The position numbers were made by a program, and so were the translations under genes. 64,000 nucleotides of DNA from Oligoflexales bacterium. GTDB lineage: Bacteria > Bdellovibrionota_B > Oligoflexia > Oligoflexales > Bog-1112. The stretch spans positions 34,233 to 98,232 of the forward strand of contig JBGCEP010000030.1 in assembly GCA_045106415.1 (NCBI GenBank), in the 5' to 3' direction. Under the pieces are notes generated by a model. That model saw nothing but the letters and a program-made list of their open reading frames with translations, was not told where the DNA came from and ran no database searches. Every line of letters begins with the position of its first letter. The stretch's first letter is position 1. Shown one piece after another: positions 752 to 49,192 of the stretch.

Positions 752-2533
752 CTAATTCACTGCGTAGTCCCACCTTGCAGATAAAGACAAAACAAGTCGG
801 TTTAGACGGCTCTGAGTCGACGTATCATTAGTCGTGCCAGGACTCACAAATTGAGTTTGGCCATAGATAAGCCCCAAACCCCAATCTATTGTTTTAGGTC
901 GACGGTTAAACCACGAAACGTGAAAACCGACCTCTAAATCAAGTGCAGACTGAATAGAATGCAGCTTGTTGTCGTATCCAACTCTACCAATATGCAACGG
1001 GGTTAAAGACGATTCTAATGTCCAATTTGCAACATCGCGCCCATTCTCCTCGATTGCCCCTTGAACACCACCATAGAAACCCCCAACCAGATTATCATAC
1101 CCGCCATAACCATCATTCTTGACAGATAAAGATTGAAAACCTCCGACAGCCCCCGCAAACCATTTATCAAACCATAAAGAATTTTTAACTTTTTGATTCC
1201 AAAAAATTCTTGCTAAAGCAGAAAGATGAGTTGCATTTACAGGGCCAGAAGCTTTCGTTTTTGAAAAACCTCCAGTCACATCAAACGTATATTTCACCAA
1301 GGGAAGAACACCTCGAGTTACTGAGACACCTATTTCATTAATAGGTGAGACAAACTGCCCAGAAGCACCAACAGGGCCGTGATATTTCCAATGATGATAT
1401 CCTGCGTGGAGCGTCATATTATCCGCAAAGTATGACATATACCCATTGCTAGGGCCATCTCCACTCGAATCATCAGAAGGTGAAGTCATACTTCCATCAA
1501 AAGAAAATAAGTCAACAAAGCCATTCTTATCATCTTCTTTGTCATTTTCTTCATCTAAATCAACACTTTGATCGTTTGCACTCTTGTTTTTCTGATAGTC
1601 TTCCTCTTCATTTTTGGCAAAACTTTTTATGTTCTTCTGAAAAACAGCACTCGAATCAGCCAATAATTTTTGACTTTCATCATTCAAACGAACAGCTACC
1701 AATGACGAAGTTGGTATATCAACAGATTTTGTCGAAAAATATTGAAAATAAGTTCGCAGCTTTGAGTGCTCAACTTTGACACCGTCACCGACAGAGAGAG
1801 GCTGATAGCTCACTAAGTCAGAAATTTTTGCAACAGACGTTGTCTTTTGTAGGTCAACAATTTTTGCATACCCTAAAAAATCTTGGTCATACTTATAAAA
1901 AGCCCCGGTCGCTGGATGGTTTTCAGAAACAACAACTCGATTTAATTTTAAACGATCTCCAATTCTCAAACCTTGATGATGCCCACCAGACAATGTAATA
2001 AAAGGTTCATGAATAGAAGTTACATAAGCATCTATTGGCCATTTATTCATCAGACCATAAAGAATCGTTCGCACCCAGTGCTTTCTTTCCTCATCTTTTG
2101 CTTTATTCCAAATAAGTTTTTCAAGTGTCAACGAATCTTGAGACCACAGTGTGAAATCAGAATCAAGCATACGCACTGTGAGAACAACCCGATCTGTATC
2201 TTTGGCAACCAGCAAACTGAACCACGCATCCAAGTCATAGTGCTTCTTAACAAACTGCCGTTCTTTATAAGTATCCCACAGATCTTCAGCTATTTCTTGA
2301 GACAGTACTGTATACTTTCCTGACCCTCGGACTTCCGATCGAAAAATATCTTCCACACTTTCTTTATGAGGAAATCTATCTCCGTCTTGACTGGAAAAAA
2401 ACTGAGGAGGGATCACAGCAACATTACGCACAACAGGAAGCTTTTGTACATCGTTTGCTGTTGCTTGAAACGAAAACAAAATACAGAATAAAAAGTATCT
2501 TTTAAATTTTTTCTGAAGACTGCGTATTCCCAT
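752..2533 (-). CDS. Exported protein: CsgG/TolB-N-like + FlgT-C-like domains, acidic linker, probable C-terminal outer-membrane beta-barrel (start 2533 or 2563)
   Basis: Signal peptide KKFKRYFLFCILFSFQATA; VRNVAVIPP...VVLTVRMLD; ITLSGG..GLRIGD...HPATG...VGDGVK pattern; C-terminal amphipathic strands ending SLSARWDY. Confidence 0.55.
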   Translation of the reverse strand: MGIRSLQKKFKRYFLFCILFSFQATANDVQKLPVVRNVAVIPPQFFSSQDGDRFPHKESVEDIFRSEVRGSGKYTVLSQEIAEDLWDTYKERQFVKKHYDLDAWFSLLVAKDTDRVVLTVRMLDSDFTLWSQDSLTLEKLIWNKAKDEERKHWVRTILYGLMNKWPIDAYVTSIHEPFITLSGGHHQGLRIGDRLKLNRVVVSENHPATGAFYKYDQDFLGYAKIVDLQKTTSVAKISDLVSYQPLSVGDGVKVEHSKLRTYFQYFSTKSVDIPTSSLVAVRLNDESQKLLADSSAVFQKNIKSFAKNEEEDYQKNKSANDQSVDLDEENDKEDDKNGFVDLFSFDGSMTSPSDDSSGDGPSNGYMSYFADNMTLHAGYHHWKYHGPVGASGQFVSPINEIGVSVTRGVLPLVKYTFDVTGGFSKTKASGPVNATHLSALARIFWNQKVKNSLWFDKWFAGAVGGFQSLSVKNDGYGGYDNLVGGFYGGVQGAIEENGRDVANWTLESSLTPLHIGRVGYDNKLHSIQSALDLEVGFHVSWFNRRPKTIDWGLGLIYGQTQFVSPGTTNDTSTQSRLNRLVLSLSARWDYAVN

Positions 2534-4004
2534 CAAAGCACAACCTATGTTTGGTCTTCTCAATCATTGTTTCAAGATGCACAGGCCTTTTCCAAACTTT
2601 TTGTAAATTCTTCAAGGTTTCAATTGTACTATCTTGCTTGAGGTCCTCTCCATCATAACGATGCTGAAGAAGAAGCTCTCCCCGATTTCTAAAGTTCCCA
2701 TCAACAACATGAATGACTGGAGCACCAAGATTAATAATTTGTTGCAATAACTTTTGTTTTATTGATCTAAAGTCTCTCGATGAAATAATATAGTCACCCG
2801 TTTTTTGATCATAATCATACAGAAACATTTTTGTTTTATGACAAAAATCCTCATCTAAATATTGATCTAAAAATGTGACATCATTATGAAATTTTCTTAC
2901 TTCAAAAATCTTTTTTCGTCCAGCACCAGCCTCTTTGGGACCTTCCCAAGATTCTCGAACTTTATGGTCATCACAGTTGAGATAGCCCACCCCAAATCGA
3001 CCTTCATCCCAACGATTTTCAATATGTCTTAGTAATTCGATCCCTAACTTATAGGGATTAAGTTGGTTAGGTTGATTTGCAACAACTCCAGCATGTTGGC
3101 AGCAGTAATCAATGATGCCTTCAGCACCAACAGGATCAATTTCTGTCATCATTTTACTATGCCAATAACTCGCCCAACCTTCATTAATAATTTTAGTTTG
3201 GCCCTGAGGAGCAAAGTAATATGATTCTGCTCGAATCATTTCCATAATCCGCCTTTGCCATGTCGACATAGGAGCATATTGAATTAAAAAATGAAGAATA
3301 TCTCGCTCTGGTTGATCTGGAACACGAGTTTGCTTTTCTGCATCCTCTAAAATTTTCCTCTTTTGATCTTCTAAATATTCTTGAGGATTAATATAATGAT
3401 CCATATATTTTTTTGACTTTAGTTTTGATGGATTTTTTTTCGCTAAATCTTCTTTTTCTTTATCGGTCAGAGATTTTATATGAGGGCGAAATACAGAATG
3501 TACATCAATTAGATTTTCCATACTCAGACAAACATCAATAAAGTCCTCAACTTCAGATTGGCCAACTTCATTGATAATATTGCGAACAACAGCTGCATCA
3601 TTTGCCATTTGATCAAGCATTTTTCGGTTTGTCTTACTAAACCAATAATTATTTTTAAAAAAATCACAATGCCCATAAACGTGAGCAATCACCATCCGTT
3701 GAGAAACTTCAGTATTGGACCTTAAAAGATACGCATAGCAAGGGTCATTATTAATGACCATTTCATAAATCTTAGACAAACCATACGTATAGCTTTTTGA
3801 TAAAGATTCATACTCCATACCCCACCGCCAGTGAGGGTAACGAGTAGGAAACCCACCATAGGCAGCTATTTCATTTAACTGTTGATAGTCGACAACTTCA
3901 AATACAGTTGTAAACATATCTAAACCCACCTCTGTTGCTTTATTCCACAGACGATCAGCTTCTGCTTGTAGATGAGGAGGGAGATTTGTCTGAAAATCAG
4001 TCAT
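2502..4004 (-). CDS. spoVR: SpoVR/YcgB family protein
   Basis: GFPTRYPHWRWG, IYEMVINNDPCYAYL, AHVYGHCDFFKNN and TKIINEGWASYWH motifs; conserved prkA-yeaH-spoVR order. Confidence 0.95.
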   Translation of the reverse strand: MTDFQTNLPPHLQAEADRLWNKATEVGLDMFTTVFEVVDYQQLNEIAAYGGFPTRYPHWRWGMEYESLSKSYTYGLSKIYEMVINNDPCYAYLLRSNTEVSQRMVIAHVYGHCDFFKNNYWFSKTNRKMLDQMANDAAVVRNIINEVGQSEVEDFIDVCLSMENLIDVHSVFRPHIKSLTDKEKEDLAKKNPSKLKSKKYMDHYINPQEYLEDQKRKILEDAEKQTRVPDQPERDILHFLIQYAPMSTWQRRIMEMIRAESYYFAPQGQTKIINEGWASYWHSKMMTEIDPVGAEGIIDYCCQHAGVVANQPNQLNPYKLGIELLRHIENRWDEGRFGVGYLNCDDHKVRESWEGPKEAGAGRKKIFEVRKFHNDVTFLDQYLDEDFCHKTKMFLYDYDQKTGDYIISSRDFRSIKQKLLQQIINLGAPVIHVVDGNFRNRGELLLQHRYDGEDLKQDSTIETLKNLQKVWKRPVHLETMIEKTKHRLCFDGNTQSSEKI

Positions 4005-4005
4005 G

Positions 4006-5112
4006 CTATTTTCCTTTGCCTAGGAAAATTTTTAAAGATTCCATAATCGCACTACGGTCTTTAATAGGAGCTAGTGTTACTTTATCATGAGATTCACCGA
4101 ACTTTTTTGTAAGATCACGAAGAAATTGACCTGAACCATATCTAGACTCTACCTGCCCATAACAAAAAATATTAGAAACAGGTAAAAGAGTGTCTTCCAT
4201 AATTTTCAAACATTCAGTCGTATCATTGCCAGACCAATTATCTCCATCTGAAAAATGAAATAAATAAATATTCCATTCATCGACAGGGTAATCTTGAGCC
4301 AACATGTCAGCAACAAGCTTATAGGCAGAGCTAATCAATGTCCCACCAGATTCTTTCGTTTTGAAAAAATCTTCTTCACTCACTTCACGCGCAGTAGCAT
4401 CATGAATAACATAACGCCTCTCTAATCCTTTATATTGCTTTTTAAGCCACGTATCGAGCCAAAAACTCGTCATGCGAACGATTTCTTTTTGTTCATCTCC
4501 CATCGACCCTGAAACATCCATCATATAGACAATAACAGCACCTGCCATCGGCTTAGGCGTGACTGTAAAAGACCGGTATCTTTTATCATCTTTAATAGGA
4601 ATAATAACTGGATTATCAGGATCATAATCACCTGTAAGCACGGATCTTTTAAGAGCTTCACGATAAGTTCTTTTAAAATAATGCAAAGACTCTGGGCCAA
4701 ATTTATGGATCCCTGAATAGCGAACTTTATCACTTTCAAGACTTTTTTGGCCTTTATTTTCGATATTAGGAAGCTCAAGCTCTTCACTCAGAATATCAGC
4801 TAATTCTTCAATTGTGACATCAACTTCAAGCTGCTGTTGCCCTGCTTCATTGCCAGCTTCACCCTCACCTGGTTGAGCCGAGCCTTCCCCTTGACCTGTA
4901 GAATCCCCAACTTCACCGTCTCCTTGCCCTACCCCATTCTGGGAAGAACCAAATCGAAAACGAGGAAGATCAATATGAGGAATAGGAATTGTGACTTCTT
5001 TTTTCCCCTGCCGCGCAATCATATCTCCACTGGAAATAAATTTTCGCAACTCTTTTTTGATCTTCCCTCGCACGATTTTATGGAATCGATTGAGGTCCGA
5101 TTCCATTTTCAT
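4006..5112 (-). CDS. yeaH: YeaH/YhbH (DUF444) vWA-domain protein
   Basis: [13 protein letters not shown] motif, [22 protein letters not shown] precedes ATG 5112. Confidence 0.93.
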
Positions 5113-5122
5113 AAGCAGCTCC

Positions 5123-7180
5123 TCAGTTGGTCGTCGCAGTATCACCACGAGCAAAAATACTAGCTACAAAAGAAAGAATATCTGTTGAGCAAATTTCGCA
5201 GTAGCCATAATTTTTTATTAATCGGTTTTTCACCACATCAATTTTCTTTTGAGTCTCACGATCAACAACATTTGACACAAGAGTTGTTAATTTAATCGTA
5301 TCTTTTTGATCTTCAAAAAGCTTCAGCTCTAAAGCTTTGTGTAGTCTTTCATTTGTTCTAAAGTCAAATGATTTCCCCTCTAGAGCAAGAGCACCAATAT
5401 AGTTCATAATTTCACGCCGGAAATCATCTTTTCGGCTTTCTGACACATCAATTTTATCTTCAATCGACCTCATCAGCCTCTCATCAGGATCTTCATCAGA
5501 ACCAGTATAAGGGTTCCGAATTTTTTCTCGCTGAACATAAGCTTTTACATTATCAATATAATTTCCACAAAGCTTATCAATACCAGCTTCATCGGCTGAT
5601 ATCGCACGTTGGACTTCATGCTTCACAATATCTTCGTACTCTCTTTTAACCTCTGTTAAAAGCTCTTGATATCGTGAACGCACTTCTGGATTATTAATCA
5701 ACGAATGGCCTTTAAGGCCTGCTGATAGTTCATTCATGATGATAAATGGATTAATACACCCATCGCCACGATTTGTAATTAATGCATTCGAAATTTTATC
5801 CTGGATATAGCGTGGGCTAATACCATCAAGACCTTCACGATCAGCATCTTTTCTTAATTCTTTTACATTATCTTCTGTAAAATGTTGTGATGTTCTTCCA
5901 TTGTAAAGTTTTAGCTTCTGTAACAATGTAAGGTTTGCTTTTTTTGGTTCTTCTAATCGCGTTAAAATTGCCCACATAGAAGCCATTTCTATAGTATGAG
6001 GCGCGATGTGAATATGAGGAACTGTTTCAGCGTTGAAATCTTTTTTATAAATTTTAACTTCTTCGTCAAGCGTTGTAATATACGGAACATCAATTTTAAC
6101 AGTTCTATCTCGCAACGCTTCCATAAACTCATTACTTTGCAATTTACGATATTCTGGTTCATTCGTATGGCCAAGAATAACTTCATCAATTGTTGTCTGA
6201 GCAAACTTTTTAGGCTTCACTCTATGCTCTTGAGAAGCAGTTAAAAGATCATATAAAAAAGCAACATCTAACTTTAAGACCTCAATAAACTCAATAATTC
6301 CTCGATTTGCAATATTGAACTCACCATCAAAGTTAAAAGCTCTAGGATCAGAATCAGACCCATATGTTGCGATCTTTCTATAGTTAATATCTCCGGTCAA
6401 TTCAGTTGAGTCTTGGTTTTTTTCATCTTTAGGTTGAAACGTTCCAATTCCAACTCGGTCTCTTTCAGAAATAACTAAACGCTTTACTCGAATATGTTTT
6501 TCTACCATAGCGTTCCAATCACCACGGTAGTGCTCAATCAAACATTCATACGTGTGACGACATGCAGGACAGAGTTCACCTTCAATAACGAGCGCTTTAC
6601 GGCGATCACGCCCTCTATTGAATTCTTCAACAAATTGAGCTCTTTGTTTTTCTGGAATCACATGAAGAGGGTCCTCATGCATAGGGCACGGCATCTCATC
6701 TTCCATTTTCAAGACAGATTCCAGATTCGTCCACACATAAGTATACAAAGCACCATCAGGCGTTTTTGAGTAGGCTTCATAACCTTTTTTTAGCAAACGA
6801 GCTATTGTCGATTTTGCGCTTCCCACAGGACCATGAAGAAGTATAACTCTTTTTTCAGGGCCAAAACGATAAGCGCCTGATTTAATAATGTTCACAAGTT
6901 TCTGTAAATGAACATCTAAACCAAAAACAGCATCACGTCCATTCTCAATAGGATCTTCAAAAAATTTCCAGTGTGTGATCTTCTTTTTATACTGTGTGTG
7001 TTGAGAATAACCATATGACGCAATCATATCGTAAAGACGTTGAAATGCTGTCCGTGCTATTTCAGGGTTTTCAACAACCATGTCCATATATTGTCGAAAA
7101 CTACCTTCCCAACGCAATTCTTCATGCTCTTCTTGAAGACCTTGCTGTGAAATAAGACTATAGAGTCTATCCGAGTCCAT
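5123..7180 (-). CDS. prkA: PrkA/YeaG family AAA serine protein kinase
   Basis: Walker [46 protein letters not shown]. Confidence 0.95.
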
Positions 7181-41985: not shown

Positions 41986-43070
41986 TATACAGAAAGCATA
42001 TAAAATACTTTTTTGGTTTTGTTATCGGCTGTAATTCGACAAATCACAAAGAGACATTAGATATTATTCCAAGATCTAAAACTGAGATCTTATCAGAGGC
42101 TCATTTAGATTGGCAGCAATTTTTTGAGACACCTCATCAGAATAATATTAAAAAACCTGCAACTACAGTCCAAAATCATAATAAAAATCTCTACACACAA
42201 GCCAAAAATCACATCCATAAAAAAAACCTGTTAAAAGCAGAACACACTCTTCAGGCTTACTTAAGAGTTCACGGCCTAGAAAAAGAACCCCTTCTCGACC
42301 TTGTGATGGTTCATATTCAACGACACCATATCAAGGATGCCTTTATCACCCTTCAAAGCCTAAGAGAACACTTGTCTCACTTAGAAGAGATTCCATCAGG
42401 TTTTCTTTTTAGGTACCGCTACACGACGGCTATTGCCTATTTGCTGAATGGTGATCACTCAGAAGGAAGGCGTATTTTAGTGGACCTTATTCATAAAGAT
42501 CAGAGCTTTCGCCCAGGATATCAAGCACTGGCGTCATCATACTTAGCACAAAACCAAGATAACATTGCAAAATTCATTATTCAGCGAGGCATCGACCAAA
42601 GTGAGCCCTCACCTGCATTTTATAACCTTCTCGGCGCCTTATCTATGAATAAAAATGAAATCTTAAACGCACAGAAATGGTTTAGAAAATCTCTCAAGAT
42701 GCAACCAGAGTACACTCCAACATTAGTCAATTTAGCAAAATTAGAAATTTCACGGCGAGAGTATGTTTCTGCTGATCACCATCTACAACTTGCTCTCAAA
42801 AGTAACCCTAACTCAATAGAGTCTTTAGTCACTCTTGGTCTTTTAAAGCAAAAGACAGGAGATCATAAAAAATCATTAATTGCTTTCCAGAAGGCTCTTG
42901 AGCTGTATCCAGAGCATAAAATAGCTAGATTCAACATGGCTACCTTACTTGCGAACCATCTTCAAAAACCTATCGAGGCTCTAAGATATTTTCATGAAGT
43001 CAAACAACTTTCAGCGCCAGGAGAGAGTCTTCATAAAGTAGCTTCTAGCTACATCGACGATATGCAATAA
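41982..43070 (+). CDS. TPR lipoprotein (GltE/AglT-like)
   Basis: ATGA overlap; lipobox-like VIG-C; clear TPRs (FYNLLG, LVNLA, LVTLG, ARFNMA). Confidence 0.75.
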   Translation: MIYRKHIKYFFGFVIGCNSTNHKETLDIIPRSKTEILSEAHLDWQQFFETPHQNNIKKPATTVQNHNKNLYTQAKNHIHKKNLLKAEHTLQAYLRVHGLEKEPLLDLVMVHIQRHHIKDAFITLQSLREHLSHLEEIPSGFLFRYRYTTAIAYLLNGDHSEGRRILVDLIHKDQSFRPGYQALASSYLAQNQDNIAKFIIQRGIDQSEPSPAFYNLLGALSMNKNEILNAQKWFRKSLKMQPEYTPTLVNLAKLEISRREYVSADHHLQLALKSNPNSIESLVTLGLLKQKTGDHKKSLIAFQKALELYPEHKIARFNMATLLANHLQKPIEALRYFHEVKQLSAPGESLHKVASSYIDDMQ

Positions 43071-43166
43071 AAACACGCGCTATCACATTAAAAATTTTCC
43101 CATAGCAAGATCAACCACAATATCAGTCGGAAAATATTCTATATTGGCAAAAAACTCGAAGACTGA

Positions 43167-43196
43167 TTGACTCTCTTAATATGAGAATGTTATAGA
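43167..43196 (+). promoter_or_regulatory. Putative sigma70 promoter for tRNA-Pro(GGG)
   Basis: TTGACT-N18-TATAGA with a TG extension. Confidence 0.5.
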
Positions 43197-43207
43197 AAAA
43201 CATGTGT

Positions 43208-43284
43208 CGGGGCGTAGCGCAGCCTGGTAGCGCGTACGTCTGGGGGGCGTGAGGTCGCTGGTTCGAATCCAGTCGCCCCGACCA
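43208..43284 (+). tRNA. tRNA-Pro (GGG)
   Basis: CGGGGCGTAGCGCAGCCTGGTAGCGCG...CT-GGG-GG...GGTTCGAATCCAGTCGCCCCGACCA. Confidence 0.95.
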
Positions 43285-43491
43285 TTTTAAAATCATCACA
43301 CAGCATTCTTAATCCACAATCTTATTTCTTTTCATTCACTATGCCATCATGCATACGGTCTCATATGCCTTAAAAGTGACTAAAATAAATACCTACAACA
43401 AAAAATTCGGGATTTAAGTGGGAACGTTTCATCATTTTGATTTATATCGACGCGTTGTATAATTCATAGAGTACAACGCGAGGATATTTTT

Positions 43492-43926
43492 ATGGTTAAA
43501 AAAGTCGAATTAAAAACTGACAAAAACAAAACAAGTGTAAAAAAATTTATTGATAACATTGAAGACGACCTTCTCCGTGACGATTCTAAAAAATTACTGG
43601 CACTTTTCAAGAAAGTTACAAAATTAAAACCTGTCATGTGGGGGACGAGCATCATTGGGTTTGGGGAATATACTTACCACAGGTCAAATGGTGATGAAGG
43701 AGTTTATTTAGCAACTGGTTTTAGCCCAAGAAAGACAGGGCCCACTCTTTATATTATGCCTGGTTACCAAGACTACTCAGAAATTTTAAAAGATATTGGA
43801 AAACACAAAACCGGAAAGTCTTGTTTATATCTAAAATCTCTTAAGGACACTAATCTTGAAGCCTTAGAAAAACTGATTAAAACTGGGATGAAAGATTTAA
43901 AAAAATCACATGAAACTAATTTTTAA
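43492..43926 (+). CDS. DUF1801 (YdhG-like) protein
   Basis: PVMWGTSIIGFG.Y.Y, GFSPRK, GKHKTGKSCLYLK. Confidence 0.9.
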   Translation: MVKKVELKTDKNKTSVKKFIDNIEDDLLRDDSKKLLALFKKVTKLKPVMWGTSIIGFGEYTYHRSNGDEGVYLATGFSPRKTGPTLYIMPGYQDYSEILKDIGKHKTGKSCLYLKSLKDTNLEALEKLIKTGMKDLKKSHETNF

Positions 43927-44055
43927 AATCTGGAAATCGTTCAAAAAAATAAAATTATTTAATAAAACTTCGTGATTAAGTACTACTTATTCTTTTTTAA
44001 ACTATATAAAGTATCAAAAAGATGAAAATCTCTATATTTATATCAGCGCATAATC

Positions 44056-44652
44056 TCAAGAAAAACATTGAAACATTTTTTGAAAAAATTTACGCAAACT
44101 TTTTTTCTTCTTTTTTTCCATCTTTTTATCATCAGGTATATGCACAAATATTTTGTCTTCAAAAAACTCAGTAAAACATGATTTTTCAAAGCATTGTGGT
44201 ATTTTTTTCTCGAAGGCTGAAGATAAATTTTTCATACATTCTTCACAATAAACATGCTCACAAGAAAGTGTCACATACTGATTTTCATGCAATGTTTCAT
44301 AGCACTCAGCACAATATTGAATAACAAAAGCGCTGTGTTTATTTTGGGATTCTTCGACACCGTGATTTGCATATTGTTCATTATCTGATAGTTCTTCACT
44401 ATCTACAGCATATATATAACTATCAACCGAACTTATAGGAGAATCTGTTTCACATGAAAACGCTATCTCTGATGATTTTGAACCTCTTTCTATAGAGTCA
44501 TAAGATCCTAATGAAGATGCAGAAGAAAATAACTGGTCATCACTAAAATATTGACACTTTACTTCTGACTGAGGAGAGTCTCCATTTGCAGACAACGCTA
44601 CAGATCCTGACAAATAAAGACAAGAAAAAATCAATATAAACACCTTCATCAT
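44056..44652 (-). CDS. Signal-peptide protein with RING-HC (C3HC4) zinc finger
   Basis: MMKVFILIFSCLYLSGSVALSA signal; CAEC-x13-CEH-x2-CEEC-x14-C-x4-C; polybasic tail. Confidence 0.75.
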   Translation of the reverse strand: MMKVFILIFSCLYLSGSVALSANGDSPQSEVKCQYFSDDQLFSSASSLGSYDSIERGSKSSEIAFSCETDSPISSVDSYIYAVDSEELSDNEQYANHGVEESQNKHSAFVIQYCAECYETLHENQYVTLSCEHVYCEECMKNLSSAFEKKIPQCFEKSCFTEFFEDKIFVHIPDDKKMEKKKKKSLRKFFQKMFQCFS

Positions 44653-44954
44653 TACCCCCACAATTTATTGTAGATAGTGTACTCTAACAACCTGTTTAAA
44701 GTATGATCACAACCATCAATCACATTTTTTATGCAGTAGAACATGTCACTTCATCTTTGAAAGAGGATCAATTACATCATTCAACTTCAATAAGAGTTAT
44801 TGAAGGTCATCATCGAGTAAGGATAAACTATCATGCATATAAGATTTTTCATTTTATTTTTCAGTATCATTGGAATTGCCTTACTTGGCACATACCTTAT
44901 TTACCCCAACAGTTATATGAAAACACCAGAGAAACAAAAAATTTTCTTGCAGTT

Positions 44955-45666: not shown

Positions 45667-48021
45667 ATGAAAATTGCAACATTTCCACAAACCATTCCAG
45701 TGACACAGCAAAACCGTAACTTTGCGTCTCAAGACTCAAAAAAGATGTCAGATCAAGACCCACATCATGGCCAAATAGATCAAAACAATCAACCGAAAGA
45801 TCAAAGAGCCAGCGAACAAATACAAAAATCCCCCCTCCCTGCACAGCAGACTGCTGAAGATACACTGCCTCAGCCCTCAGAAACGTCTTTATGGGCTACT
45901 CTCCCCAAAGCAGGTCCTCCCCCATTTAAATCAAGCGAATTCCCACAGTATCTAGAGCATGAGGTTCTCGACATTTTAAAAGAAAGAATGAGGCAGAATA
46001 AAAGTATATTTGAAATGTGGCCATCTCTTCCTCCTGTGCGAGTTCTTCATGAGAGACTTGCTTATGACGCTATGATTCGATCAAAGATTATTGACCACAT
46101 TGAATTTAGGGGACAAAGTCGAGCAGATAACCCTGAGCTCATCGAGCTCTTTCGCAAAAAAGCATATGAAAAAGATGCTGCTTGGAGACAATGGGATCGG
46201 CAAAGAATCGCCTGGATAGACGATGTCCGACAGGAACGTTTATATTTCTGGAGTACTTTTGACTTTATACAGGGTCGATTTAAAGAAAAAGCTGACAATA
46301 ATTATGTGTATAGACAAGACTTTTTTCAACAGCGCTTTGAAAATGTTGAAAACGCAAAGGACATGCGACGATTTCTTAATGAAATTCGAGAAGCATCACT
46401 GCAAAAAAGATATGATATTTTCTGGGATATGGTTGCTAAAGGACTGGAAAAGCATCGCCATCACATTCCATACTCAGGCCGTAGTATAGAAGATCTTTTG
46501 AGGTGGCTACCTGACGTACCAAATAAATCTCCTTTGATTCAAGCTATTGAGGTTATAAAACTCAATCGTGAAATCAGTGCTGCAGAGCAAATTATGGATC
46601 ATGCCAACAGTCGTGCGGTATCGAATGCTGTTTGGTTTCATGACTTTAGTTTTGTCAAAGCAGAAAACACTGTTGAGCAGTTTCAAGACTACCTTTATGA
46701 TTTAAAGAAACGAGATCTCTATGAAATTTATATGATCCGCGACCATCGAAACCATGAAACCATGGAACACTTCGATGAAGCCATGTATGACACTCTCTAT
46801 CAAATCAATCAATATTGGGATCTTTGGGATCTCAAAAATCAACCTCTGCAGCATGCAGTTTCTGTTTTTGGATCTAATCGCTCTGCGATTCATGGCCTTT
46901 TCGAAACTGGGAATAAATCTCGTATTCAATTTGCTATGGAATTGAATAAACAAAATCTCGACTTCATCAGAGCAGATCAGATCTTTGCTAGACACCCTGG
47001 CACAAATAATGTTGATATTTTATACCACACCCAGATTTTTGATAGTTATAGCAAAATGCTTGACGATCGTTATCAGAGAAAAATAGATAATGAAAAAGTT
47101 GATATCAAAGCCGATTATCATAAACATTTTTTAACAGACCAACACCGCGCTACAATGATCGGCAGAAATATTGCAGAGTATGAAAAAAACGTCGAAGGAA
47201 TCGAACTCAAAAGACAAGAAAACACCGATCGCCAAAATTATTATGTTGACGTTCTCACGGCACCTTGGTCTGGGCAGAATCAATTCTTTAGCACACGTGC
47301 TCAAGAGCATGAAGAACAAGAAATTATTTTCCATGAACTGCTCACTTCAGATATCAATAAACTTCAAGAAAGCCGTCACACTTCATCCCTTCATGACAAG
47401 TATGACAAAGAGCACGTCGCATACTACATGAGTCGTAAAATGGCTGATTTTGACGGCATTGACAACATAAGCCTGGTAAGAAAAGATAGTCAAAATATCA
47501 TATCTCAAGAACGCAATCATGTTGACAGCGATGTCAACGCGTACCAAAATGCCGACAAACAAGCTGTTGGTTTTCATCGTGCACTGCATCACGCTGAATT
47601 TCGAGCACATCACTCTCAAGAAAATGAAATAGTTGTCAATTTAGCTTTTCATTACGAAACAAAAACACAAGCTCACCCTTATTCAGCCCCCCAAGAACAA
47701 TACTATGAAGACCAAGATTTATCTTCATTTCCAACTGAAAATAATGACTTAAAAACCTTCGCCCAAGCAACTGTTGATACACCACGAAATCCAGAGGCCA
47801 CTAAGGGAATTCAACTTTACGCAGGTCTTGAGATGCAAAACCAACTCTATCACAACTCCCCACCTCCAGACCCTTTATCCAAGGCAAATGATGAGTCTGA
47901 AGTCACTCGACAGCGAGATGTTGCAAAAATTAGATTTTTTGAAACAACTCGAGAATATCCAACAAAACCTATGAATCCAGAAGGTCTGGTTGAACAAAAA
48001 AAGCCTAAAAAACCTCTATAA
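45667..48021 (+). CDS. Large hypothetical protein (Q/P-rich disordered ends, helical core)
   Basis: 784-aa uninterrupted ORF with an SD-like AAGGGG; no recognised family. Confidence 0.75.
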   Translation: MKIATFPQTIPVTQQNRNFASQDSKKMSDQDPHHGQIDQNNQPKDQRASEQIQKSPLPAQQTAEDTLPQPSETSLWATLPKAGPPPFKSSEFPQYLEHEVLDILKERMRQNKSIFEMWPSLPPVRVLHERLAYDAMIRSKIIDHIEFRGQSRADNPELIELFRKKAYEKDAAWRQWDRQRIAWIDDVRQERLYFWSTFDFIQGRFKEKADNNYVYRQDFFQQRFENVENAKDMRRFLNEIREASLQKRYDIFWDMVAKGLEKHRHHIPYSGRSIEDLLRWLPDVPNKSPLIQAIEVIKLNREISAAEQIMDHANSRAVSNAVWFHDFSFVKAENTVEQFQDYLYDLKKRDLYEIYMIRDHRNHETMEHFDEAMYDTLYQINQYWDLWDLKNQPLQHAVSVFGSNRSAIHGLFETGNKSRIQFAMELNKQNLDFIRADQIFARHPGTNNVDILYHTQIFDSYSKMLDDRYQRKIDNEKVDIKADYHKHFLTDQHRATMIGRNIAEYEKNVEGIELKRQENTDRQNYYVDVLTAPWSGQNQFFSTRAQEHEEQEIIFHELLTSDINKLQESRHTSSLHDKYDKEHVAYYMSRKMADFDGIDNISLVRKDSQNIISQERNHVDSDVNAYQNADKQAVGFHRALHHAEFRAHHSQENEIVVNLAFHYETKTQAHPYSAPQEQYYEDQDLSSFPTENNDLKTFAQATVDTPRNPEATKGIQLYAGLEMQNQLYHNSPPPDPLSKANDESEVTRQRDVAKIRFFETTREYPTKPMNPEGLVEQKKPKKPL

Positions 48022-48229
48022 CGTCTTATAAGATGATATGAACATATTGGAACGAAACTTTCTTTCAGAGAAGCTGTAAGTTTAAAATGCATATCTCCGA
48101 CTGCGACATTTTAGGCGATAACAACTGGACTTCAAAAATCCACTTAGATCTTGACTGCACTCTTTCTTGACTTTATCAATAGTAGGAGTTAAGAACCTCC
48201 TACTAAAAACATTGAAAACAAGGAGATTT

Positions 48230-49192
48230 ATGTACTCAAGCATCAAAACCATAAGCTTCATAATACTTATAAGTACGACACCTCTATATTCAGGCACAAG
48301 TGACATCTATGACAGCACACAACAAACACTTCTAGAATTAGAATTATTAGAACAAGAAAAATACGAAAAAATCCAAGCACAAAGAGAAGCAAAAGAAAAA
48401 CACAAAATATTCCAGGCACAAAAGGCAAAAGAAGAATACGAAAAAATCCAAGCACAAGAAAAAGCACAAAAAGAATACAAAAAAATCCAAGTACAAAACG
48501 CAAAATATGAAAAAATCCAAGCAAAAAGACATAAAAAAATCTACCCACTTCTCGCTTGTGCTATCGAAATGATTGAAGACGCTTATTCAGATGGTCATTC
48601 TATTCATGCTGGCCTAAGCTTTTTAGAATATATCCAAGAACAACAATTTCATGACCTTAAAACCATTGAAAAAAGATGCATAAAAATTTTAAAAAAATAT
48701 AAAAAAAACTTTAAGAAATCAAAGTGTTTCAAAAACTTTAAACCGAAAAGTGATTTTGAAAAACATTTCGAACAACGTTTTCCATATACAAATATTAATA
48801 CTTCAGATTGTTCTTCTGAAGCGACCTCTGGACTCAGTTTGACATGTGGATTAGGCATATCTTTCGGAGGAGGGCTGTATCAAACAAGGACTCTAAGCTA
48901 TTTAGGCCTGTCTCGAAAAGTTTATAAAAGACGACTTCACGCCGGTTTGGGTTTCGGCCTAGGCCTTCTGCATCACAAAGCACCATACCCAACCTATGAC
49001 ACTTCAGGCAGCATGTTTGGCTGTATCGCTATCATTGGGGATGAAGAGGGATGTTGTGATGTTAGAGCATGCTGCGGAGTCGGAATCTTTACGTTACTTG
49101 ACCTCTCGGAACACGAAGCGCTTCCACATGTTTCAAGCTACAAACATCACCGATTTACAAAACTTTTAACCTTCTTAGGCTTCGAGCAATAA
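48230..49192 (+). CDS. Exported hypothetical protein with tandem coiled-coil repeats and Gly/Cys-rich hydrophobic C-terminus
   Basis: SD AGGAG before ATG 48230; signal-like N-terminus; YEKIQAQ-type repeats. Confidence 0.7.
   Translation: MYSSIKTISFIILISTTPLYSGTSDIYDSTQQTLLELELLEQEKYEKIQAQREAKEKHKIFQAQKAKEEYEKIQAQEKAQKEYKKIQVQNAKYEKIQAKRHKKIYPLLACAIEMIEDAYSDGHSIHAGLSFLEYIQEQQFHDLKTIEKRCIKILKKYKKNFKKSKCFKNFKPKSDFEKHFEQRFPYTNINTSDCSSEATSGLSLTCGLGISFGGGLYQTRTLSYLGLSRKVYKRRLHAGLGFGLGLLHHKAPYPTYDTSGSMFGCIAIIGDEEGCCDVRACCGVGIFTLLDLSEHEALPHVSSYKHHRFTKLLTFLGFEQ
48354..48525 (+). repeat. About five imperfect 33-39 bp tandem repeats (core TACGAAAAAATCCAAGCAC)
   Basis: Encodes EKYEKIQAQREAK / EKHKIFQAQKAK / EEYEKIQAQEKAQ / KEYKKIQVQNA / KYEKIQAK. 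Confidence 0.85.

Follow-up and report, generated by a model that had tools for sequence, protein, structure and literature searches.

We analysed a 64,000-nt stretch of the genome of an uncultured Oligoflexales bacterium (GenBank assembly GCA_045106415.1, contig JBGCEP010000030.1, positions 34,233 to 98,232 of the forward strand), hereafter the window. On its minus strand, an open reading frame (ORF) at 44056..44652 encodes a small protein with a signal-peptide-like start, a long acidic linker, a C3HC4 RING finger resembling the RING1 of RING1-IBR-RING2 (RBR) ubiquitin ligases, and a polybasic tail. We refer to it as the focal protein. In window coordinates, the ORF and its parts are:

44056..44652, minus strand: ORF of 198 amino acids, with a TGA stop codon at 44056–44058 and ATG codons at 44652 and 44649
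44655..44659, minus strand: five consecutive G resembling a Shine-Dalgarno sequence, with a spacing of 5 nt to the ATG at 44649 and of 2 nt to that at 44652, from reading the sequence
44590..44652, minus strand: signal-peptide-like N-terminus, residues 1–21, with MMK (Lys3), a 17-residue uncharged hydrophobic core and A-L-S before A22, from reading the sequence
44338..44589, minus strand: acidic Ser-rich linker, residues 22–105, defined by composition and matching no Pfam family
44176..44313, minus strand: C3HC4 RING finger of RBR-RING1 type, residues 114–159, with eight metal ligands, the last two spaced C-x4-C
44059..44175, minus strand: post-RING helical segment and polybasic amphipathic tail, residues 160–198, defined by model helices, charge and hydrophobic moment

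Public gene calls use the second ATG (44649), that is, residue 2, which gives a protein of 197 amino acids. Over residues 24–105 the linker contains 24% Ser and 21% Asp plus Glu (Glu 11%, Asp 10%) with a net charge of −13; it is probably disordered, and the RING finger appears to be the only folded module of the protein. In the tail, Lys makes up 26% of residues 161–198, the last 30 residues carry a net charge of +7, and the helical hydrophobic moment reaches 0.57. An earlier note on this DNA, made from the letters alone, had described the signal-like start, the Ser/acidic linker, the eight-ligand motif at nt 44313–44176 and the basic amphipathic tail, and all of these are present in the ORF, the motif exactly where it had been placed. 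A bacterial lipoprotein was considered and rejected: in a lipobox a Cys closes the hydrophobic core, and here the sole N-terminal Cys (residue 11) follows I-F-S in the middle of the core, with no lipobox. The protein was likewise rejected as a substrate for CaaX prenylation, in which the Cys stands four residues from the C-terminus, because its last residues are Q-C-F-S and place the Cys third from the end rather than fourth. Promoter and terminator scans around the gene returned sites no commoner than in shuffled sequence.

The finger has the motif C-x2-C-x13-C-x-H-x2-C-x2-C-x14-C-x4-C, and residues 114–159 fit the RING pattern that we tested, C-x2-C-x(9–39)-C-x(1–3)-H-x(2–3)-C-x2-C-x(4–48)-C-x(2–4)-C. 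Shuffling the focal protein 200,000 times produced this pattern once. Across the genome (G000; 2.95 Mb in 89 contigs, 93.8% complete, 0.33% contamination), 12 of 10,973 six-frame ORFs matched the RING regular expression, compared with a mean of 0.15 in 20 shuffles; one of the 12, G000:C16:219–926 on the minus strand, was set aside as a Cys/His-rich tandem-repeat ORF whose match is accidental. The focal motif is not a chance occurrence. A Pfam scan of the protein returned 13 families at E ≤ 1, eight of them RING families, and its neighbours in the ESM Atlas, taken as leads only, all belong to RING families. In the six-frame search of the genome the protein scored 26.8 bits, rising above the cut-off only when neighbouring in-frame stretches were added (29.1). 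A reading as Prok-RING_4 was rejected (E 0.33, 11.3 bits against a cut-off of 27).

A single-sequence AlphaFold model of the whole protein had a pLDDT of 34, with low confidence throughout, and was discarded. Residues 100–198, modelled with a 14-row RING1 alignment (A1), gave a mean pLDDT of 72 and values of 81–90 in the finger, which was predicted to form three short strands followed by a helix; the tail was modelled as helices at residues 157–170 and 176–197 (pLDDT 53–67). The fold matches of this model lie below our thresholds and were used only as showing a consistent fold class. Within that limit, the best Foldseek match was ARIH2 (E 0.067), with 7oni_H at a probability of 0.98 and an rmsd of 2.2 Å over 52 columns, and HOIP RING1 came third. 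In the VIA structure comparison approximately the top 35 rows were of RING type, ARIH2 among them, with RNF216 RING1 at Z 4.4 (rmsd 2.2 Å over 51 residues); the RING1 domains of RNF216, HOIP, HHARI and HOIL-1 align to the model at 2.2–3.1 Å. As for the cross-brace beta-beta-alpha fold, it is putative: RING domains are the best matches of the model, though below thresholds. These data indicate that the focal finger is a real but divergent RING.

The comparison with solved structures also pointed to a particular type of RING. By phmmer, the best sequence match was ARIH2 (E 4e-4), and the match spans RING1 together with the RING1-IBR linker helix (query residues 107–195). A profile built from 12 RING1-plus-linker segments of RBR proteins from G000 and three related genomes, with the focal protein left out, found the focal protein among the 10,973 six-frame ORFs at E 8.9e-7 (28.3 bits) with all eight ligands aligned, the best score after those of the RBR genes; with a profile from 7 plain RING-H2 paralogues, its score was only 10.1 bits (E 0.3). 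An hhalign comparison with the RBR module placed it on the RING1 columns (probability 87%, E 3.8e-6). Most RBR RING1 fingers of alignment A1 likewise close with the pair C-x4-C, and the plain paralogues close with C-x2-C. Because of the RING1 profile, the hhalign match and the last-pair spacing, set against the weak RING-H2 score, the label "RBR RING1-type" proposed from the letters is supported, and the finger is closer to RBR RING1 than to ordinary RING-H2.

The resemblance ends with RING1. In A1 the focal tail aligns with the linker that leads from RING1 to IBR in the RBR proteins, and the Cys third from its end shares a column with the first IBR Cys; the focal protein stops where the IBR of its relatives begins and has neither an IBR nor the catalytic cysteine of RING2. 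No remnant of IBR or RING2 was found in any frame of 42001–44400, and truncation, if there was any, is therefore old or clean. With no IBR and no RING2 cysteine the protein cannot form the RBR thioester and is therefore not an RBR ligase. The proposal that it mimics an E3 ligase is accordingly supported in part: the finger resembles RING1, but the protein has RING1 only and cannot work as RBR ligases do.

RBR fingers are typical of eukaryotes, the nearest protein-language-model clusters of the focal protein (leads only) are giant-virus RING proteins, and the GC content of the gene is low. These points would suit a eukaryotic or giant-virus gene that was mis-binned or mis-assembled, an explanation that we regard as very improbable. 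The gene lies inside a 98-kb contig with tRNA-Pro, DUF1801, methyltransferase, flagellar, sigma-54 and ribosomal genes, and this context excludes contamination; it has no introns, its ribosome-binding site is of bacterial type, and the contamination estimate of the genome is 0.33%. Moreover, single contigs from two sequencing runs bridge the gene to its neighbours: a contig of run X1 spans 43745–44799 of the focal region and a contig of run X2 spans 44014–44280 (taking in the stop codon and the RING's C-terminal portion), each with 0 differences. The two runs, labelled "plant metagenome", come from a single study, and the assembly may derive from them; we therefore claim no habitat. The genome itself is that of an Oligoflexales bacterium, in Bdellovibrionota in the wide sense, as had been surmised from the letters: its FliI is 57–64% identical to proteins of metagenome-assembled genomes (MAGs) labelled Oligoflexales, Oligoflexus and Pseudobacteriovorax, and its identity to the FliI of Oligoflexus tunisiensis is 59%.

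Having placed the gene in a bacterial chromosome, we surveyed the ubiquitin-system genes around it. By Pfam searches, the motif scan and Pfam scans, G000 holds thirteen RING-type genes: eight plain RING genes, four RBR-type genes and the focal gene. Searches by family gave nine zf-RING_2 matches and three IBR matches over the cut-off. The architectures of the 12 paralogues combine RING, IBR, ankyrin, hexapeptide, pentapeptide and FGE-sulfatase domains. Among the eight plain proteins, whose RING is C-terminal, one has ankyrin repeats and four have hexapeptide or left-handed beta-helix repeats. The RBR-type genes and the only deubiquitinase gene found in G000 are:

G000 C1:7754–9031, minus strand: RBR-type protein (locus L030)
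G000 C18:24604–26124, minus strand: RBR-type protein (locus L019)
G000 C41:2042–3958, plus strand: RBR-type protein (locus L014)
G000 C38:779–1462, plus strand: RBR-type protein, fragment (locus L018)
L063:1167–3632 on G000:C28, plus strand: USP deubiquitinase of 821 amino acids with a C-terminal USP/UCH domain (E 3e-14)

As fusion partners the RBR-type proteins carry pentapeptide repeats, an FGE-sulfatase domain or a left-handed beta-helix, and the catalytic Cys of RING2 is present. In an alignment of ten RBR modules from the family of this genome (f1), every ligand column is invariant, including the Gly-Cys in RING2, and the module profile matches ARIH2 (E 4e-16), ARIH1, HOIL-1, RNF216 and parkin across RING1-IBR-RING2. 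The RBR genes on C18 and C1 (two contigs, one of 120 kb and one of 80 kb) are bacterial, because they are flanked by ordinary bacterial genes: phosphoribosyltransferase, solute-binding protein, methionine aminopeptidase, CtaA/CtaB, RNase II and H+-pyrophosphatase. A homology search of genome contigs with the C18 RBR protein returned no relative. Automatic annotation has already met the domain, since the name "IBR domain-containing protein [Oligoflexales bacterium]" stands in the database. The focal protein is thus not a lone oddity; its gene is one of thirteen RING-type genes, and the repertoire extends through family f1.

No match to UQ_con (E2) and none to ubiquitin was found in G000, at its 93.8% completeness; E1 was not searched for. 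With no E2 or ubiquitin gene found, the ligase-like proteins of this bacterium would therefore need host enzymes. The repertoire of RING and RBR proteins suggests that the bacterium manipulates the ubiquitin system of a eukaryotic host, and because the gene set comes without a detected E2 or ubiquitin gene, a role against a eukaryote is the most economical one.

We examined how these genes are distributed over the order. The f1 genomes are all draft MAGs, and counts across related genomes are not independent. Of 95 genomes of the order, six have IBR, and all six belong to f1 (6 of its 16 genomes, G000 included); the 79 genomes of the other 15 families have none; in the phylum sample the count was likewise 6, out of 131 genomes. 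Thirteen of the 16 f1 genomes have zf-RING_2, as against 1 of 79 elsewhere. That one genome (G089) belongs to another family of the order, has 14 zf-RING_2 matches, and is made up of 770 contigs with 8% contamination; its matches could be contamination or could mark a second host-associated lineage. UCH, which was searched for in f1 and in controls, occurs in 13 of 16 f1 genomes, and ubiquitin domains occur in 3 of 16. A eukaryote-like E2 is encoded in one f1 genome of the 16 (G001):

L049:1357–1986 on G001:C56, plus strand: eukaryote-like E2 (UQ_con E 9e-37) with the HPN motif, the Cys and a signal-peptide-like start, flanked by an aldehyde dehydrogenase gene and an ORF of 332 amino acids

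None of the IBR, zf-RING_2, UCH, E2 and ubiquitin searches had a match in the 14 control genomes. Ubiquitin-system genes are concentrated in one family of the order. RBR-type proteins occur in f1 beyond G000, with several in G004, G008 and G012. At two loci of this family, L041 (G012:C355) and L042 (G008:C61), ORFs of approximately 920 amino acids or more, cut off at the locus boundaries, combine an IBR-like zinc finger with a USP (UCH) deubiquitinase domain.

The analysis shows the ORF, its motif, the RING1-type similarity, the repertoire with its distribution, and a genome in which neither an E2 nor a ubiquitin gene was found; from these we infer a course from export through host delivery and E2 binding to an effect on ubiquitination. 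The reading that we favour, with moderate confidence, is that the focal protein is an exported member of a host-directed ubiquitin toolkit that sits by its tail on acidic membranes, engages host E2~ubiquitin by its RING1-type finger and serves as a simple adaptor or decoy. A Sec signal peptide would carry it over the inner membrane, and a type II secretion system, or vesicles, would release it from the cell. In or on the cell of a eukaryotic host or prey, the polybasic amphipathic tail, for which the earlier note had raised an NLS or membrane-targeting role, would keep the protein on acidic membranes, where the RING1-type finger may engage host E2~ubiquitin. The protein could then serve as an adaptor in the manner of simple RINGs. 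Alternatively, it could bind weakly or act as a decoy, in competition with RBR ligases that are either the host's own or co-secreted; this second option is raised because a Glu stands at the usual E2-contact position and there is neither an IBR nor a RING2.

Judging from the secretion genes of G000, the protein could leave the cell by Sec and then by type II secretion. Three secretins were found. A type II cluster (L061, G000:C21:4000–23000) has two GspC genes, two GspD secretin genes in tandem, and GspE, F, G, J and K; protein L of the type II secretion system was not detected with the Pfam model in G000. The second secretin-bearing cluster is PilMNOPQ. Signal-peptide-like starts were scored in 10 of 12 RING/RBR proteins, as against 39% (903/2330) of long six-frame ORFs, by a lax heuristic that missed two of the 12 paralogues whose starts look signal-peptide-like by eye; the heuristic is a weak test because so many long ORFs pass it.

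A number of results weigh against the reading as an exported, host-directed protein. The HMMER models of the RING families, which the earlier note had named as a check, agree as to the kind of domain, with eight RING families matched, and fall short as to score: in hmmscan every Pfam RING score of the focal protein lies under its gathering cut-off, with 26.2 bits for zf-RING_5 (E 7.7e-6; cut-off 27.9), 24.2 for zf-RING_UBOX (cut-off 25.2) and 19.7 for zf-C3HC4 (cut-off 21). The structure searches with the model returned weak small-domain matches, with no Foldseek match in the PDB at E ≤ 0.001 and no VIA chain at Z ≥ 5 (Z ≤ 4.5). The residue before the second Cys is a Glu (C-A-E-C), with no hydrophobic residue there, and this is the position that in most RINGs holds a hydrophobic E2 contact (PMC12591485). 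At 0.313, the GC content of the gene is about 2 sd lower than the 0.398 average of the genome (600-nt windows, sd 0.042). The case for a signal peptide comes from reading the sequence and from the lax heuristic, which the focal start passes. The search of G000 for secretion genes found no VirB4, no TssC and a single FHIPEP, which is flagellar, and therefore no injection system is evident; a Cys-rich zinc finger sent through Sec would have to fold after crossing the oxidising periplasm.

No relatives of the focal protein itself were found. An exhaustive HMMER search of 1.84 billion representative proteins found no orthologue; the sole other match in that library, P0003, was rejected as a translated Cys/His-rich tandem repeat, not a relative. 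In 40 related genomes there was nothing better than E 1.6e-3, a match to the RING1 of an RBR protein of G004. The lack of an orthologue also counts against the favoured reading. A word-indexed search of 5.8 billion clusters returned the focal protein itself only, with nothing among longer proteins for residues 100–198, and phmmer found no significant paralogue among the six-frame ORFs of the genome (best E 0.13).

Several of these results would also suit the main rival explanation, a decaying remnant: an RBR-type gene that lost its IBR and RING2 and persists as a shortened ORF that drifts fast and has no function. The end of the protein coincides exactly with the RING1/IBR boundary, with the tail Cys on the first IBR Cys column; no orthologue was found anywhere searched; the Pfam scores lie under the cut-offs; Glu occupies the E2-contact position; and the GC content is the lowest of 12 RING/RBR genes measured in the genome (the others range from 0.354 to 0.429). 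Decay, however, sits poorly with eight intact metal ligands at RING spacing, an arrangement reached in 1 of 200,000 shuffles, and with 198 open codons that follow a Shine-Dalgarno-like run and begin with an intact signal-peptide-like segment. Nor is the tail random, being polybasic and amphipathic, and no trace of IBR or RING2 follows downstream in any frame. We consider a remnant unlikely.

The start and the lack of an evident injection system bear on a further alternative, in which the protein has a bacterial job in the envelope, binding zinc or another metal in the periplasm or on the outer surface with no relation to ubiquitin. A Sec-type signal leads to the periplasm, where there is no ubiquitin system, and treble-clef zinc fingers serve many purposes in prokaryotes. 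Against this, the finger shows specific similarity to RBR RING1, and its genome also encodes complete RBR modules and a USP, proteins that have no known substrate in a bacterium where ubiquitin and E2 are lacking. Signal-peptide-like starts, moreover, are also found on the RBR and USP proteins in its company and on the eukaryote-like E2 of G001, Prok-RING_4 matches only at E 0.33, and the focal protein has no PADLOC defence match. An envelope role seems to us improbable, more so than a remnant.

A wider version of the host-directed reading takes in the whole family. Under it, the f1 bacteria would be undescribed eukaryote associates (parasites, predators or symbionts) that deploy the first bacterial counterparts of RBR transthiolating ligases together with RING fingers, USPs and, in some members, E2 and ubiquitin domains, and that do so through Sec signals and a type II system, not by injection. 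The focal protein would then be a membrane-tethered E2~ubiquitin trap that redirects or blocks the RBR and RING reactions of the host. We put this forward as a speculative proposal that is doubtful as a whole.

To our knowledge, bacterial mimics of eukaryotic ubiquitin ligases come from a handful of pathogens and amoeba symbionts, and almost all are U-box, F-box or bacterial-only folds that act via injection systems. The nearest likeness of the focal finger is to the RING1 of eukaryotic RBR ligases (ARIH2, ARIH1/HHARI, HOIP, HOIL-1, RNF216 and parkin), with which it shares the C3HC4 ligands and the last pair C-x4-C; ARIH2 is best both in sequence and in Foldseek, and the sequence match runs on into the RING1-IBR linker. 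Unlike those ligases, the focal protein lacks the IBR, RING2 and the catalytic cysteine, so that transthiolation is not open to it; it has Glu for the usual hydrophobic residue before the second Cys, and it combines a bacterial signal-peptide-like start, an acidic linker and a polybasic tail on a bacterial chromosome. With the RBR-type proteins of G000 and f1 it has in common the last-pair spacing, the signal-peptide-like start and the lineage, and the RING1 profile finds its finger; they differ from it in keeping IBR and RING2 with Gly-Cys and in having extra domains, and pairwise similarity to the focal protein is not significant (E 0.13). Endogenous prokaryotic ubiquitin-like operons (Ub, E1, E2, RING and JAB) also include a prokaryote-encoded RING finger, but no E2 or ubiquitin was detected in G000, and the neighbours of the focal gene are a DUF1801 gene, a methyltransferase gene and orphans, not a conjugation operon.

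The closest described bacterial zinc RING is SneRING of Simkania negevensis (PMC12591485). Like the focal finger, which by its motif would bind zinc, it is a bacterial zinc RING with an atypical E2-contact residue and a proposed target in host ubiquitination; it is set apart through an N-terminal RING joined to an alpha/beta domain, demonstrated ligase activity and an origin in an obligate intracellular chlamydia. The effectors NleG, LubX, AvrPtoB and RavN, named in a review of October 2026 (PMC13720258), are bacterial proteins that bring an E2-binding fold into a eukaryotic cell, as is proposed here. They are zinc-free U-boxes injected by type III or type IV systems, whereas the focal protein has a zinc motif, a Sec-like start and a genome in which no injection system was found. 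That review states that RING and U-box ligases occur in bacteria and that bacterial RBR counterparts have not yet been identified (PMC13720258). Our literature searches on ubiquitin in Oligoflexia and on bacterial RBR/IBR proteins turned up no description of such proteins. The link of Oligoflexales to cnidarian hosts comes from 16S surveys only, and the accessible part of a 16S study of Aiptasia is silent on these genes (PMC10701089).

A little-studied uncultured lineage carries zinc RING fingers together with complete RING1-IBR-RING2 modules. If these proteins are active, they would widen the range of host-mimicking ligases, indicate an unrecognised eukaryote-associated lifestyle in Oligoflexales, and pose the problem of how zinc fingers that start with Sec signals get into the host cytosol. 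The focal protein, as the smallest member and a natural RING1-only fragment, would be a convenient probe for RING1 alone.

The local context of the gene may bear on its origin. It lies 0.8 kb beyond a tRNA-Pro gene, after which come, as a block, the DUF1801 gene, the RING gene, the methyltransferase gene and two orphan ORFs:

43208–43284, plus strand: tRNA-Pro(GGG) gene
45667–48021, plus strand: orphan ORF of 784 amino acids, rich in Gln, Asp, Glu and His, with no Pfam, NCBIfam or PADLOC match
48167–49192, plus strand: orphan ORF of 341 amino acids, with no Pfam, NCBIfam or PADLOC match

This block may be a variable or acquired region. In all three relatives examined for synteny (G008, G012 and G002), the two upstream genes are kept at 26–36% identity and are followed by a response regulator; the syntenic site of these three genomes has no tRNA-Pro gene and no RING gene, which at 26–36% identity says little. 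The PADLOC defence scan, in which the focal protein had no match, gave a weak methyltransferase-like match for one neighbour. Elsewhere in the window, a gene trio of PrkA, YhbH and a SpoVR-like gene (2502–7180, minus strand) adjoins flagellar and sigma-54 genes.

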